UHGV virus genome: UHGV-0195968
Strand: one strand, 5' to 3'
Length of the DNA: 21,002 bases
Source: a virus
Part shown: positions 2,132-14,836 of the stretch, piece after piece
Numbering within the stretch: position 1 is the stretch's first letter
How the letters are laid out: each line of letters begins with the position of its first letter
Notes under the pieces: generated by a model
What the model was told of the DNA's origin: nothing
What the model saw: the letters and a program-made list of their open reading frames with translations, nothing else
Databases searched by the model: none
Program-made: the position numbers and the translations under genes

Positions 2132-2702
2132 GTTTGTTGTGGTTGGCCATCACTCTCGCATAGGTCATGCGCAACGACTTGCCGCGCTGCTGGATGCTCA
2201 TCTGCTTATTGATGACGGTAACCGCGGCGCGAACTGGAATCATCGTCGCGCTATCGAATGGGCTGCTGAGCAACCTTGCCGGGTAGTGGTGTTGGAAGAA
2301 GACGCGCTTCCTGTGCAGGGCTTCACCGATAAGGTAACTGAATGGCTGGTGCGCTTCCCTGACGACATGCTGAGCTTTTATCTCGGTACCGGCCGACCGC
2401 CGCAGTATCAGAAAGAGATTGCCGGAATGCTGGTGGATGCGGATCGCGTCTGTGGTGACCACATCGTATTAAGCAAACTGATTCACGGCGTATGTTATAG
2501 CCCTCCTCGGGGAAGTTTGGCGCGCATGCTCAGTACATGGAACAAAACGCTGGCAGCTGATTACGCTGTCGGTGAGGCATTCGGTGGTCGGGTGATTTAT
2601 CCGTGTTACTCGCTGGTGGATCACGCTGACCTCCAGACGGTTGAGCGTCACCCTGACAACGAGCCGAGGACAGAACGCCGCCGCGCATGGAGGCTGGCAT
2701 AA
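2112..2702 (+). CDS. Glycosyltransferase-like protein, GT25-like (LPS-core-type GT-A) by motif pattern
   Basis: Taken from the internal ATG at 2112 (MMQTEIKFVVVGHH...) of the 2004..2702 ORF, because the upstream extension would run through the HNH-AP2 gene in another frame. Motif order resembles GT25: N-terminal beta-strand IKFVVVGH, GANWNHRRAIEWAAE, acidic VVVLEEDA. No transmembrane segment seen. The family assignment is from memory of the GT25 pattern, not from a search. Confidence 0.45.
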   Translation: MMQTEIKFVVVGHHSRIGHAQRLAALLDAHLLIDDGNRGANWNHRRAIEWAAEQPCRVVVLEEDALPVQGFTDKVTEWLVRFPDDMLSFYLGTGRPPQYQKEIAGMLVDADRVCGDHIVLSKLIHGVCYSPPRGSLARMLSTWNKTLAADYAVGEAFGGRVIYPCYSLVDHADLQTVERHPDNEPRTERRRAWRLA

Positions 2703-2746
2703 GCTGTTGTTTATCCCATCCTTCCTCACTTTGAGCACCGTTACGC

Positions 2747-3100
2747 ATGGAGACTGTCATGAACAAAGAGCCCCGCGTATATGGCAGCCGATGGGATAAG
2801 GCCCGTCTGCGTTTCCTGCAGCAGCACCCACTATGTGTGATGTGCGAGCAGCAGGGGCGGATTACCCCAGCAACGGTGGTTGACCATATCGAGCCCCACA
2901 AACTCAAAGATGCGCTTAAGTCAGGTAACCCGCTGGCCATATCGAAAGCACAGCTCCTGTTCTGGAGTAAAGAGAACTGGCAGCCACTGTGTAAAGCGCA
3001 TCATGACTCAACGAAACAGAGGATGGAGAAGAGCGGCGCGGTAATAGGCTGTGATGCCAATGGCTACCCGCTCGATCCTGCGTCTCACTGGAGCACGTAA
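2747..3100 (+). CDS. Phage HNH endonuclease, packaging-associated (HK97 gp74-like position)
   Basis: 117-aa ORF with HNH motifs VVDHIEPHK and NWQPLCKAHHDSTK and several Cys (CVMCEQ). Lies immediately upstream of the terminase genes. The true start may be the second ATG at 2759, which has GGAG upstream. Host-like GC. Confidence 0.75.
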   Translation: METVMNKEPRVYGSRWDKARLRFLQQHPLCVMCEQQGRITPATVVDHIEPHKLKDALKSGNPLAISKAQLLFWSKENWQPLCKAHHDSTKQRMEKSGAVIGCDANGYPLDPASHWST

Positions 3101-10169: not shown

Positions 10170-10613
10170 ATGTCTGCACTTTATGAAAAATCGCAGCTGA
10201 CGAAGATCCTTATTTCCTCCCTGCCAGCCACCAAAGAAACGATGGATTCCGCAACCTTCCTCGATCTGAGTTGCACCATCAAAGAAATTCAGTTCACCGG
10301 TGGTCAGAAGCAGGATATCGACGTAACAACACTTTGCTCTACCGAGCAGGAGAACATCAACGGCCTGCCTTCTCCGTCAGAAATCTCTCTGTCCGGCAAC
10401 TTCTACAAGAATCCGGCGCAGGACGCCTTGCGTGAGGCCTATGACAACGATACGACCTACGCTTTCCAGGTTATCTTCCCGTCCGGCAAGGGCTTTAAGT
10501 TCCTGGCTGAAATCCGCCAGCACACCTGGTCTTCAGGTACCAACGGCGTAGTGGCGGCAACGTTCTCCCTGCGCCTGAAAGGTAAGCCTGAAAACATCGA
10601 GTCTGGCTCCTGA
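10170..10613 (+). CDS. Major tail tube protein
   Basis: 147 aa. RBS AGGAG 7 nt upstream. Position directly upstream of the G / G-T chaperone pair. Confidence 0.65.
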   Translation: MSALYEKSQLTKILISSLPATKETMDSATFLDLSCTIKEIQFTGGQKQDIDVTTLCSTEQENINGLPSPSEISLSGNFYKNPAQDALREAYDNDTTYAFQVIFPSGKGFKFLAEIRQHTWSSGTNGVVAATFSLRLKGKPENIESGS

Positions 10614-10621
10614 GAGGTCGC

Positions 10622-11005
10622 ATGAAGAATATTAAAAATCTCGCCCTGGCTAAGATGTCGGGATTTCGTCATAAGATGGTCGCCGTTCCTGAGTGGGAAG
10701 GCGTCAAAGTGGTTCTCCGTGAGCCGTCTGGAGAAGCCTGGCTGCGCTGGCAGGAGGTGGTGAAAGCGGGTGCTGATGATGAAAATGTGTCGGTATCGGA
10801 AAAGGCACACCGTAATCTTTGCGCTGACGTGGTGCTCTTCATTGACGTCCTGTGCGACACCGATAAGCAACCGGTATTCAGCGTAGACGAAGAAGAGCAG
10901 GTGCGTGAAATCTACGGCCCCGTCCATTCACGCCTGCTCAAACAGGCGCTTGACCTGATCAACAACGCGGACGAAGCGCGGGAAAAGTCTCAACCCCCGG
11001 CGTAA
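10622..11005 (+). CDS. Tail assembly chaperone (lambda gpG analogue)
   Basis: 127 aa. Lies between the major tail gene and the tape measure gene, and is followed by an ORF in the -1 frame that is open from 10954. Confidence 0.65.
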   Translation: MKNIKNLALAKMSGFRHKMVAVPEWEGVKVVLREPSGEAWLRWQEVVKAGADDENVSVSEKAHRNLCADVVLFIDVLCDTDKQPVFSVDEEEQVREIYGPVHSRLLKQALDLINNADEAREKSQPPA

Positions 11006-11292
11006 AGTTTCTGATGTCGCTTGCGCTCCGGATGGGGCGCACGCTCTCAGAGCTTCGGCAGAATATGACGGCAAGCGAGCTTCTGATGTGGATTGAGTAC
11101 GACAGGCAAAGTCCGGTTGGCGATATTCGCGGTGACATTCAGGCCGCCCAGATCGTCTCTGCCATCTACGGTTCGCAGGGGGCAAAAGTACCGCTGGACG
11201 ATGCGATCCTGCGCTGGGGTGGTGAGGAGCAATCAGAACCGAATGACCCGTTTGCAGGGCTTGAAGCGGCGCTAACAGCTGCGACACAATAA
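10622..11292 (+). CDS. Tail assembly chaperone G-T fusion made by programmed -1 frameshift (lambda gpGT analogue)
   Basis: The -1 frame is open from 10954 through 11292, overlapping the last 17 codons of the G frame. The motif GGGAAAAG at 10980-10987 (G-frame codons GAA AAG) resembles the lambda G-T slip site GGGAAAG. The expected fusion is about 220 aa. Confidence 0.5.
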
Positions 11293-11296
11293 TTGC

Positions 11297-11325
11297 TTCA
11301 CATGTCATCAATGTGGCGATACGCT
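11297..11325 (+). promoter_or_regulatory. Weak candidate sigma70-like promoter for the moron
   Basis: TTCACA (11297-11302), 17-bp spacer, TACGCT (11320-11325). Lies just after the T stop and upstream of the moron RBS. Poor match to consensus. Confidence 0.2.
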
Positions 11326-11349
11326 CTTTCCTTAAGAAAAGGAGGCGTT

Positions 11350-11538
11350 ATGGAACCACTGGTAGTAGTGTTTGGAATATTCGGCTGGTTGATAAATCTA
11401 ATTGTGATTTTTTATGTAATACGGTTTAGCACAAGGGCAAATGAACAAGTTGAAGCCCTTAAAGAGATAAATAAAAAACAAGATGCGCAAATAGATTTAT
11501 TAATACAAGTCGCTCACAAAAGAAAAGACAGTTTATAA
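11350..11538 (+). CDS. Moron: 62-aa single-pass membrane protein, candidate superinfection-exclusion protein (HK97 gp15-like position)
   Basis: Strong RBS AAGGAGG 4 nt before the ATG. Markedly AT-rich compared with neighbouring genes. Hydrophobic helix PLVVVFGIFGWLINLIVIFYVIRF followed by a charged tail (NEQVEALKEINKKQDAQIDLLIQVAHKRKDSL). Followed by its own terminator. The ORF track's 11293 start adds 19 residues with no RBS. Confidence 0.55.
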   Translation: MEPLVVVFGIFGWLINLIVIFYVIRFSTRANEQVEALKEINKKQDAQIDLLIQVAHKRKDSL

Positions 11539-11544
11539 CTCACG

Positions 11545-11569
11545 ACCCGCTATCAAGCGGGTTTTTTTT
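11545..11569 (+). terminator. Intrinsic terminator after the moron
   Basis: ACCCGC-TATCAA-GCGGGT stem-loop followed by TTTTTTT. The T-run abuts the tape measure start codon. Confidence 0.55.
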
Positions 11570-14500
11570 ATGGGTGAAAATATGGCTACGTTGCGCGAAC
11601 TGATCATCAAAATATCTGCAAACTCTCAGTCATTTCAGTCTGAAATTTCTCGTGCTTCAAGAATGGGGAATGACTATTACCGGGTAATGCAGACTGGAGG
11701 ACGCCAAGCGGCCGCAGCTTCGCGTGAAACTCAGCGTGCCTTAGCTGAGGTAACTAGTCAAATAAACACCGCGAAGGCCTCAGCGCTGGGAATGGCAGGT
11801 GCATTTGCTGGAGCATTTGCGACTGGTCATCTTATATCGCTGGCCGATGAATGGAGCTCTGTTAATGCCAGGCTAAAGCAGGCTTCCCAATCGTCTGATG
11901 ATTTCACGGAGTCTCAGCGGGCGCTGATGGATATTAGCCAACGAACCGGAACCGCCTTCTCTGATAATGCGAGTCTTTTTGCGCGTTCCGCCGCATCAAT
12001 GCGTGAATACGGATACAGTTCGCAGCAAGTTCTGGATGTAACCGAGGCCATTTCTACTGGACTAAAGCTATCCGGCGCCAGCACGGCAGAGGCAAGTTCT
12101 GTTATCACCCAGTTTAGTCAGGCATTAGCTCAGGGCGTTCTGCGGGGCGAGGAATTCAACTCTGTTAACGAAAACGGTGATCGAGTTATCCGTGCGCTGG
12201 CCGCTGGGATGGGTGTAGCTCGTAAAGATCTGAAGGCAATGGCCGATCAGGGGATGCTAACCGCAGATAAAGTTGTCCCGGCCCTGATAAGTCAACTTGG
12301 CACTATGCGTGGTGAATTTGAGGCAATGCCGCAGACCGTTTCTGCTGCCACGACGAAAGTCGAAAATGCTTTCATGGCATGGGTAGGTGGAGCTAATGAA
12401 GCTACTGGTGCGACAAGTGCTCTTGTTGCTGTATTGAATACAGTTTCTGACAATATCGACACTGTGGCTACGGCTGCCGGAGCTTTGGCTGCAATAGGTG
12501 GAGCTCGCTATCTTGGAGGGATGTTTGGCGATCTTGGGAACCAAACGGCGCAATTAATAGATGCCAGAAAGAACGAAATTGCGCTCGCATCTGCAAGGGC
12601 TGAATCTGCTACCCAATCACAACGAAAGGCGGCAGCAGATGCGATTGCTGCCGAGCGTGCTTATCAGCTCTCGCTATCCGAGTTGGAACTTGCAAAAAAC
12701 ACAAATGCAGAAGCGACAGCTACACAAAATTCTATTGCCAAACGGCGCGAAATGATAGCCGCCAATGCCACTCTCGTTCAGTCAAATAAAGCAGTATCAG
12801 CGTCGCAAGAAGCACTCAACCGATCAACATCGGTAATGAATTTATTCAAGTCTGGCGCTACGGGGCTTTTGTCGTTAGTTGGTGGTTTGCCAGGAATTTT
12901 AATGTTGGGTGCTGGGGCGTGGTACATGATGTATCAACGCCAAGAACAAGCCAGGGAATCTGCAATCCAATATGCGGACACAATCGAGCAGGTACGAGAT
13001 AATCTGAAATCAATGTCTCAGACGCAGATATCCGCCAACCTTGGACAGGCGAATATTTCACTGGATGCTCAAAATAGTGCGATTGAACAGCAGAAGCAGA
13101 AAGTTGCTGAATTATCCAATCAACTTTATAACGCAAAATTAGCAGCCAATTCTGCTTCAGAGGGAACATGGCTGTATAACGATGCGGTTGAGAAAGCAGC
13201 AGAGTTTGCTTCAGAACTTGCGGTTGAAGAAGGCCGACTTGAGCAAATGCTCAATAAAAGAAAGCAAACACAACAGTTAATAAACGACATAACTGATCAG
13301 GCTATAAATAAAACAGTAGAAATGGCTGGCGCCGTAAGTTCTCTTACAGAGATGTATGACCGTCTGAACAAGGTTTCCAGACAGTCTACAGCAGTGTCCC
13401 CACCAAAATATGCAGGGCCTGTACTTCCTGCACTTGATAATAAGCAGCAGCAAGCTATAGACAAGGCGCAGCGACAGCTTGAGTTGTCCGGTCTTAAGGG
13501 ATTGGACAAAACCCGCAAGCAGGCGGAATTCGATGCATCTGACCTTAATCTCCCTGCTGGTTGGCGTGAGAAGTATGTCAGCATGGAAGTTGAGTCAGCC
13601 AGGCAGTTGCAAGCTATTCGTGACTCAAGCCGCCATAAGGGCGGGAAATCCGAGGCGGAAAAAACAGCTGATGCCTATGACAAGCTGATCAAACAGCAAA
13701 AAGAGCAGATTGCCCTGCAAGGCCAGAATACTGAACTGGCGAAGGTTAAATACCAGGTCAGCCAGGGCGAACTTGCTTCTCTGACAGAAGCCCAGAAAAA
13801 GACGGTATTGCAGAATGCTACGCTGATTGACCAGGTTAAATTACGTGAGCAACTGCGAAATTACGAAGCCAACCTTGCCGACAGTAACGCCAGCGCCCGC
13901 GCAGCCAATGAAGCGCAACTGCTGGGATACGGGCAGGGAACCAGGTTCCGTGAAAGACTTCAGGAGCAGTTCAATCTGCGTAAGGAGTTTGAGCAGAAGA
14001 ATACCGATCTTCTCCGCCAGCGTCAGGCTGGTGAAATCGACGAGACGTTCTATCAGCAGGGGCTGGCACTTAATAAGCGCTACCTCGAAGAGCGCCTGCT
14101 CGACCAGGAGGGATATTACGCAGCTTCTGATGCGCAGCGTGACGACTGGATGACGGGACTGTCTGAGGGTTATGCGAACTGGGTGGACGAAGCTACTGAT
14201 TATTCTTCCATGGCCGCTGACGGCATGAAGCAGGCCATGGGTGGCGCGGTCACCACGATCACCGACATGCTCAATGGCAACGTTGACAGCTGGAAGGACT
14301 GGGGCGTCAGCGTACTGAAGATTATCCAGAACGTCCTGGTGAATATGGCTGTTGCTAATGGCGTCAGCTCAATTGGATCACTGTTCAGTTTTGGCGCCTC
14401 GTCAGCCGCAACCGCCAGCAGCGGTACCGCTATTCAGAATGCCGGCGCGAACTTTACCTTTAATGCGAAGGGTAATGTTTACGACTCTCCGTCCCTGAGC

Positions 14501-14836
14501 GCTTACAGCAATGGCGTTTTTCAGACGCCTCAGCTGTTTGCTTTTGCCAAAGGCGCAGGCGTTTTTGCCGAGGCTGGTCCGGAAGCCATTATGCCGCTTA
14601 CGCGCGCCGCTGATGGTTCGCTGGGCGTTCGGGCAGTTGGTACTCCGCAGGTCTCCGGCGGTGTGCCTTCAGTTAACTTCGGCGATATCAATATTCAGGG
14701 TGGATCACCACAGGCAGCAAGTCAGGGAACCGCCGGCGCCGCTGGCAGACAACTGAAAGATGCCATCACTGGCGTCATTAACGAACAGGCCAGCATGCCG
14801 GGCTCGCCTCTGTGGCGATTAATCAAGGGAGTTTAA
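11570..14836 (+). CDS. Tail tape measure protein (lambda gpH-like)
   Basis: 1088 aa, largely alpha-helical/coiled-coil in composition, with an internal hydrophobic segment (LLSLVGGLPGILMLGAGAWYMMY). Position between G-T and M. The start may be the in-frame ATG at 11582. Confidence 0.9.
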   Translation: MGENMATLRELIIKISANSQSFQSEISRASRMGNDYYRVMQTGGRQAAAASRETQRALAEVTSQINTAKASALGMAGAFAGAFATGHLISLADEWSSVNARLKQASQSSDDFTESQRALMDISQRTGTAFSDNASLFARSAASMREYGYSSQQVLDVTEAISTGLKLSGASTAEASSVITQFSQALAQGVLRGEEFNSVNENGDRVIRALAAGMGVARKDLKAMADQGMLTADKVVPALISQLGTMRGEFEAMPQTVSAATTKVENAFMAWVGGANEATGATSALVAVLNTVSDNIDTVATAAGALAAIGGARYLGGMFGDLGNQTAQLIDARKNEIALASARAESATQSQRKAAADAIAAERAYQLSLSELELAKNTNAEATATQNSIAKRREMIAANATLVQSNKAVSASQEALNRSTSVMNLFKSGATGLLSLVGGLPGILMLGAGAWYMMYQRQEQARESAIQYADTIEQVRDNLKSMSQTQISANLGQANISLDAQNSAIEQQKQKVAELSNQLYNAKLAANSASEGTWLYNDAVEKAAEFASELAVEEGRLEQMLNKRKQTQQLINDITDQAINKTVEMAGAVSSLTEMYDRLNKVSRQSTAVSPPKYAGPVLPALDNKQQQAIDKAQRQLELSGLKGLDKTRKQAEFDASDLNLPAGWREKYVSMEVESARQLQAIRDSSRHKGGKSEAEKTADAYDKLIKQQKEQIALQGQNTELAKVKYQVSQGELASLTEAQKKTVLQNATLIDQVKLREQLRNYEANLADSNASARAANEAQLLGYGQGTRFRERLQEQFNLRKEFEQKNTDLLRQRQAGEIDETFYQQGLALNKRYLEERLLDQEGYYAASDAQRDDWMTGLSEGYANWVDEATDYSSMAADGMKQAMGGAVTTITDMLNGNVDSWKDWGVSVLKIIQNVLVNMAVANGVSSIGSLFSFGASSAATASSGTAIQNAGANFTFNAKGNVYDSPSLSAYSNGVFQTPQLFAFAKGAGVFAEAGPEAIMPLTRAADGSLGVRAVGTPQVSGGVPSVNFGDINIQGGSPQAASQGTAGAAGRQLKDAITGVINEQASMPGSPLWRLIKGV

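Follow-up and report, generated by a model that had tools for sequence, protein, structure and literature searches.

The window (the whole 21,002-nt stretch of DNA that was analysed) carries, between the G/T tail assembly chaperone genes and the tape measure gene, a small module made up of a candidate promoter, a ribosome-binding site (RBS), a 62-codon gene and an intrinsic terminator, whose coordinates are collected in Table 1.

Table 1. Features of the module and its neighbours in the window.
Feature	Position (nt)	Strand	Description
Gene G ORF	10622-11005		Pfam Phage_TAC_1, E = 4.9e-59
Gene T	11014-11292	+	-1 frame part of the G/T tail assembly chaperone; Pfam Phage_tail_T, E = 2e-20
Gene T stop codon	11290-11292		TAA; left boundary of the moron
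Whole module	11293-11569		Starts just after the T stop and extends through the T run
Promoter candidate	11297-11325	+	Weak, sigma-70-like; TTCACA (11297-11302)-N17-TACGCT (11320-11325), 8/12
RBS	11339-11345	+	AAGGAGG, read from the sequence, 4 nt before the ATG; identical in HK97
Gene 15 orthologue	11350-11538	+	62-aa YebO-family protein; predicted N-terminal transmembrane helix (~residues 4-24); conserved helical tail
Intrinsic terminator	11544-11569	+	Hairpin 11544-11563, its last two T opening the run T8 at 11562-11569
Tape measure protein gene (H / gp16 type)	11582-14836	+	1084 aa; right-hand neighbour; start from the HK97 annotation

The ORF runs from ATG 11350 to the stop codon TAA 11536-11538 and encodes 62 amino acids (MEPLVVVFGIFGWLINLIVIFYVIRFSTRANEQVEALKEINKKQDAQIDLLIQVAHKRKDSL). 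Its GC content is 0.323 (GC3 0.27), while gene T has 0.581 and the tape measure gene 0.51, and it is the lowest-GC 189-nt stretch of the whole window. The first-pass annotation had described an AT-rich moron between the G-T genes and the tape measure gene, with a strong RBS of its own and a clean intrinsic terminator, and this description was confirmed by the base composition, by the Pfam matches of the two upstream genes and by the signals on either side of the ORF. The terminator scan found a stem of 8 pairs and a loop of 4 nt followed by eight T ending at 11569; the corresponding RNA folds at -13.0 kcal/mol (z = -4.2), and none of 200 shuffles folded as well. The promoter, which had been put forward as a possibility, stands as a candidate only: the sigma-70 promoter scan returned no site in the moron at the tool's threshold, but the 8/12 element, although below that threshold, is the best promoter match in 11271-11350, and in two diverged orthologous morons the tool called a 9/12 site at the corresponding place (TTCACA-17-TACGAT in L008 and GTGACA-17-TAGGAT in L020).

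A longer ORF, with a TTG 11293 start (81 aa) or an ATG 11311 start (some database entries), was rejected because the extension is not conserved, being replaced by an in-frame stop or by unrelated upstream sequence in diverged orthologues, and because the strong RBS serves ATG 11350. Also rejected was ATG 11570 as the start of the tape measure gene; it has no RBS and abuts the T run. When the window was compared with two orthologues at 75-81% protein identity, 25 of 41 and 33 of 51 nucleotide differences fell at third codon positions, and synonymous to non-synonymous codon changes stood at 21:11 and 23:15. This preference for third positions and synonymous changes supports a coding ORF and indicates that it is under purifying selection.

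Two further observations concern the neighbouring genes. The G/T frameshift site at 10979-10987 reads CGG GAA AAG in the G frame (GGGAAAAG), a phasing that departs from the canonical G GGA AAG of lambda; despite this non-canonical site, gene T lies in the -1 frame relative to G, as expected. In addition, the sole other stretch of the window with a GC content below 0.40 (189-nt windows) is 13104-13324, within the tape measure gene, where the encoded protein is nearly identical to HK97 gp16.

We searched phage records by BLASTN with positions 11200-11650 as the query and obtained 96.5-96.7% DNA identity over the full 451 nt to HK97, HK75, HK633, mEpX1, HK106, HK446, HK544 and mEp234; in HK97, HK75, HK633 and mEpX1, at 96.7% over 451 nt, the feature is annotated Gp15. 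The matching CDS of HK97 is gene 15 ('Gp15, moron product', AAF31105.1), with Gp14 (T), a putative terminator annotated at the same place as ours, and H as its neighbours. The two proteins align without gaps and are identical at 58 of 62 positions (94%), the substitutions from the window to HK97 Gp15 being L14M, V23L, I24L and K57Q (window residue first). Three of these four lie in the membrane helix, and all are conservative and affect residues at which the family itself varies, the invariant positions being intact; like the RBS, the terminator and the start of H are identical in the window and HK97. Residues 1-61 also match phrog_5031 (E = 2.5e-28), which carries no function label. Because DNA identity is 96.7%, the protein is identical at 58 of 62 residues and synteny is the same, orthology is established: by sequence and gene order, the gene in the window is the orthologue of HK97 gene 15 and as such already known. 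The first-pass annotation had correctly placed HK97 gene 15 at this position; the order G, T, gene 15, terminator, H is the same in the window and in HK97. It had held back from asserting homology to gp15 and had left room for a distinct small membrane protein; neither reservation survives the comparison.

Over its 1084 aa, the tape measure protein of the window is 90% identical to HK97 gp16. Its last ~65 codons (14642-14836) encode residues unrelated to HK97 gp16, which marks a mosaic joint at the end of the protein that contacts the tail tip.

Beyond the gp15 proteins themselves, the product belongs to the YebO family, with a match to Pfam YebO (PF13974) of 40.2 bits versus a gathering cut-off of 27 (E = 3.9e-10) and 38% identity over 48 aa to E. 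coli K-12 YebO (b1825, 95 aa; MG1655 record). A family profile search of 1.84 billion representative proteins retrieved only 29 clusters, so that the YebO/gp15 family is small. In the alignment, gp15 and the chromosomal YebO proteins form a continuum and have in common the membrane helix, the juxtamembrane motif R-x-S-V-R-A-N-E-Q (also given, for gp15 versus the YebO family, as R-x-S-x-R-x-N-E-Q) and a helical K-Q-x-A-Q-I-D-L-L-I segment. Within the gp15 branch, at 72-97% identity (Citrobacter, Klebsiella, Raoultella), about half of the positions are invariant, including the helical-tail segment INKKQDAQIDLLIQ and the mid-helix residue Asn16. The single hydrophobic helix and the helical C-terminal tail read from the sequence at first pass were both recovered: the best 19-residue Kyte-Doolittle window covers residues 6-24 (mean 2.57), and AlphaFold2 predicted one continuous helix over residues 2-61 (pLDDT 85). 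The hydrophobic stretch is preceded by MEP and followed by RFSTR, and the positive-inside rule applied to these charges suggests an N-out, C-in topology for this copy of gp15, in which the conserved tail would be cytoplasmic. A sequence search of the PDB with the moron protein gave chance-level matches only, PADLOC and NCBIfam had no match to it, and Rfam at the gathering threshold returned nothing in the window and no antisense RNA family.

Phage_tail_T and a PF06120 (Phage_HK97_TLTM) tape measure gene flank the gene in all 11 loci that we fetched, which are chromosomal or metagenomic and encode the exact 62-aa protein or a 59-aa variant. Six of 5,426 complete E. coli genomes carry it, under the RefSeq name 'YebO family protein', and the exact protein turns up in 565 indexed blocks of an assembly collection. 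Among GTDB species representatives a single locus was found, in Klebsiella spallanzanii, which is consistent with prophage cargo that varies between strains, a scan of species representatives being uninformative on taxonomic distribution. The closest phage records, Enterobacter phage LAU1 and Aeromonas phage AsXd-1 (~92% identity over ~70% of the window), are without gene 15, their similarity stopping at the stop codon of gene T; both, as well as SW-37, have unrelated genes in the slot of the moron. Of the chromosomal loci that were fetched, the nearest matched parts of the window at 95-98% identity, and none was identical to it. In Serratia phage OS31 and in HK542, T is followed by a hairpin and directly by H, without a moron. 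The module is extra DNA at a precise junction of conserved genes, with a composition unlike that of its neighbours, and is a moron as Juhala et al. 2000 used the word (summary in PMC3594210), where a promoter and a terminator of its own are among the features of such an element.

The slot that separates the T stop from the start of the tape measure gene lies at 11293-11581 in the window, and at 2594-3066, 2594-2999 and 291-817 in the loci L002, L003 and L006, respectively. We surveyed it in 80 viral contigs that share 87-100% identity with the window in the tape measure N-terminus (L023-L102, slot at ~1200-1500). It was filled in 80/80 contigs, measured 283-730 nt with a GC content of 0.32-0.40, and ended in a hairpin and a T run in every one of them. 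Eight unrelated classes of AT-rich cargo, all encoding predicted envelope proteins, were found across the 80 contigs: gp15 (30 contigs), a 113-aa lipoprotein (14), a 137-aa lipoprotein (12), a 198-aa secreted protein (7), a 97-aa Cys-rich secreted protein (5), a 110-aa two-helix membrane protein with a zinc ribbon (5), a 150-aa secreted protein (4) and a 125-aa secreted protein (3), these labels being our reading of N-terminal sequences (lipobox, signal-peptide-like and hydrophobic stretches) and not the output of a predictor. The slot of LAU1 holds a further, ninth type, a 121-aa lipoprotein. Leaving gp15 aside, searches of the slot cargos against Pfam and PADLOC gave no informative match except for the zinc ribbon, and gp15 is the sole slot cargo with a known function.

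The hairpin at the end of the slot deserves separate mention. Among contigs with 99-100% identical tape measure N-termini, its sequence changes with the cargo class, which argues that the terminator travels with the cargo. More distant relatives with an empty slot, OS31 (L005, 700-725) and HK542 (L007, 686-708), keep a GC-rich hairpin and a T run, so that the tail operon includes a terminator-like element also where no moron is found; HK022 (L022, 2457-2480), which has a different type of tape measure protein, has no hairpin at the junction. The proposal that the terminator belongs to the phage backbone was therefore supported only in part, since the hairpin varies with the cargo class, and the hairpins of the empty slots may be relics or the ancestral state.

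Elsewhere in the window, the region upstream of the terminase genes (158-1615, 1622-2131, 2004-2702) contains a 485-aa glycosyltransferase (phrog_1579, E = 2.9e-252), a glucosyltransferase-like ORF (phrog_854) and, between the two, a low-GC (0.44) HNH-AP2 homing-endonuclease gene. A possible reading is that the glycosyltransferase genes are lysogenic-conversion or DNA-modification genes into which a homing endonuclease was inserted.

The function of gp15 in superinfection exclusion was published in 2012, and HK97 gene 15 was the first element to be called a moron (PMC3594210). A commentary by the gp15 authors describes the HK97 protein as a product of the prophage that resides in the inner membrane and keeps HK97 and HK75 from injecting their genomes; surface receptors are not blocked, and this exclusion is independent of repressor immunity (PMC3594210). 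The first-pass description of HK97 gene 15, as coding for a small inner-membrane protein that blocks DNA entry, agrees with this account. Exchange of the tail region with HK022 is reported to relieve the block (PMC3594210; PMC10883804). The same account derives gp15 from yebO and reports that over-expression or deletion of E. coli yebO was without effect on HK97 (PMC3594210), which argues that the phage protein has a function of its own. Its authors stated in 2012 that the precise mechanism was unknown (PMC3594210). More recently, DNA entry by HK97 was found to need LamB, FkpA and PtsG, the tape measure protein interacting with PtsG (bioRxiv 10.1101/2025.12.01.691526), and a 2026 review ascribes the block to an interaction of gp15 with the TMP-PtsG complex (PMC12939059).

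Against this background, we consider it highly probable that the window contains the orthologue of HK97 gene 15 as a moron module whose inner-membrane product excludes HK97-type siphophages at DNA entry. From its position between T and the tape measure gene, the module, with its weak promoter, strong RBS, 62-codon gene and terminator, would allow a repressed prophage to express a single-pass inner-membrane protein of the YebO family, while the terminator would keep transcription of the moron in the lysogen out of the tape measure gene. The protein would then block DNA entry of superinfecting HK97-type siphophages after adsorption, with a specificity that would be set by the incoming tail, that is by its tube and tape measure genes. 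We expect the same function because the tape measure protein is so similar to HK97 gp16, and it follows from this similarity that the prophage would carry both the excluder and the tail type that it excludes; from the conservative nature of the four substitutions, we infer that they leave the exclusion function of this copy intact. Since the end of the tape measure protein has diverged, the exact range of exclusion could differ. [quoted passage not shown]

A role that is altered or broader within the same family, either as a YebO-like modulator of the host envelope or with an exclusion range shifted from HK97 and HK75, appears improbable to us. It draws on the chromosomal YebO members, which are without known function (PMC3594210), on the three substitutions in the membrane helix and on a tape measure C-terminus unlike that of HK97. 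However, the substitutions are conservative and confined to family-variable positions, the invariant residues have been kept, and an HK97-type tape measure gene is always found with the moron; moreover, the reported indifference of HK97 to over-expression or deletion of E. coli yebO points to a function specific to the phage copy.

We regard as very unlikely a holin-like or toxin-like activity, also entertained at first pass, by which the protein would damage the membrane when expressed: small size, one hydrophobic helix and a charged tail are the sole resemblance, whereas the gene sits in the tail operon and not in a lysis cassette, and a related E. coli prophage has its holin, endolysin and lysis genes upstream of the terminase. 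No such family was matched in Pfam, PHROGs, NCBIfam or PADLOC, no antisense RNA family accompanies the gene, and the HK97 orthologue is reported to be expressed in stable lysogens (PMC3594210). There is hardly any probability left for a decaying remnant without present function. Although the rarity of the gene among complete E. coli genomes and its single locus among GTDB species representatives might speak for decay, the frame, the RBS and the terminator are intact, substitutions across orthologues at 72-83% identity are biased to third positions, and both the recurrence of the exact protein in the assembly collection and the presence of gp15 in 30 of the 80 related viral contigs argue for maintenance. 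The reading as an exclusion gene of the HK97 gene 15 type is the one that we retain.

As one more instance of the gene by which morons were defined, the copy in the window matters little in itself. In public records it usually appears as 'hypothetical protein' or 'YebO family protein', and since PADLOC, NCBIfam and PHROGs provide no functional label, the name 'gp15-type superinfection exclusion protein' could be given to it. The slot offers a more useful lead than this copy, its pattern being a way to find DNA-entry blockers aimed at the tape measure proteins of siphophages. We raise, tentatively and as a suggestion that may well prove wrong, that the T / tape-measure slot of HK97-type tails serves specifically to house exclusion genes as cassettes. 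If most of the unannotated cargo proteins were, as gp15 is, blockers of DNA entry mediated by the tape measure protein, new superinfection-exclusion families would lie beside their likely target, the tape measure gene, and the gene in the window would still be an ordinary gp15. A literature search of an incomplete collection found no description of the slot as a multi-family hotspot.

Compared with HK97, the locus has the same gene order, the same gene length and the same AT-rich module, but the window phage is a mosaic relative, ~60% of the window aligning at ~91% identity, and its tape measure protein has a diverged C-terminus. The two also differ in their tail tube proteins: that of the window (10170-10613) is 147 aa long, as in LAU1 and AsXd-1, whereas those of HK97 (gp12) and of Citrobacter prophages measure 234 aa, with weak Ig-like (Ig_3) Pfam matches on the Citrobacter ones; the short form in E. 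coli EC2001 carries the PGAP label of an incomplete pseudogene, perhaps wrongly. E. coli YebO, the product of a chromosomal gene that adjoins mgrB and is without known function (PMC3594210), differs from gp15 as the other chromosomal proteins of the family do, by a charged C-terminal extension of ~30 residues that is absent from gp15. In mechanism, the protein would resemble SieA of P22, Sie2009 of Tuc2009 and Ltp of TP-J34, which are envelope proteins expressed from prophages that block genome entry after adsorption, the tape measure protein being the identified target in the case of Ltp (PMC10883804). The resemblance is one of mechanism only, none of the three having a sequence relationship to gp15: the host of Ltp is Gram-positive and the protein itself a lipoprotein, and SieA, from a podovirus, is a multi-pass protein.
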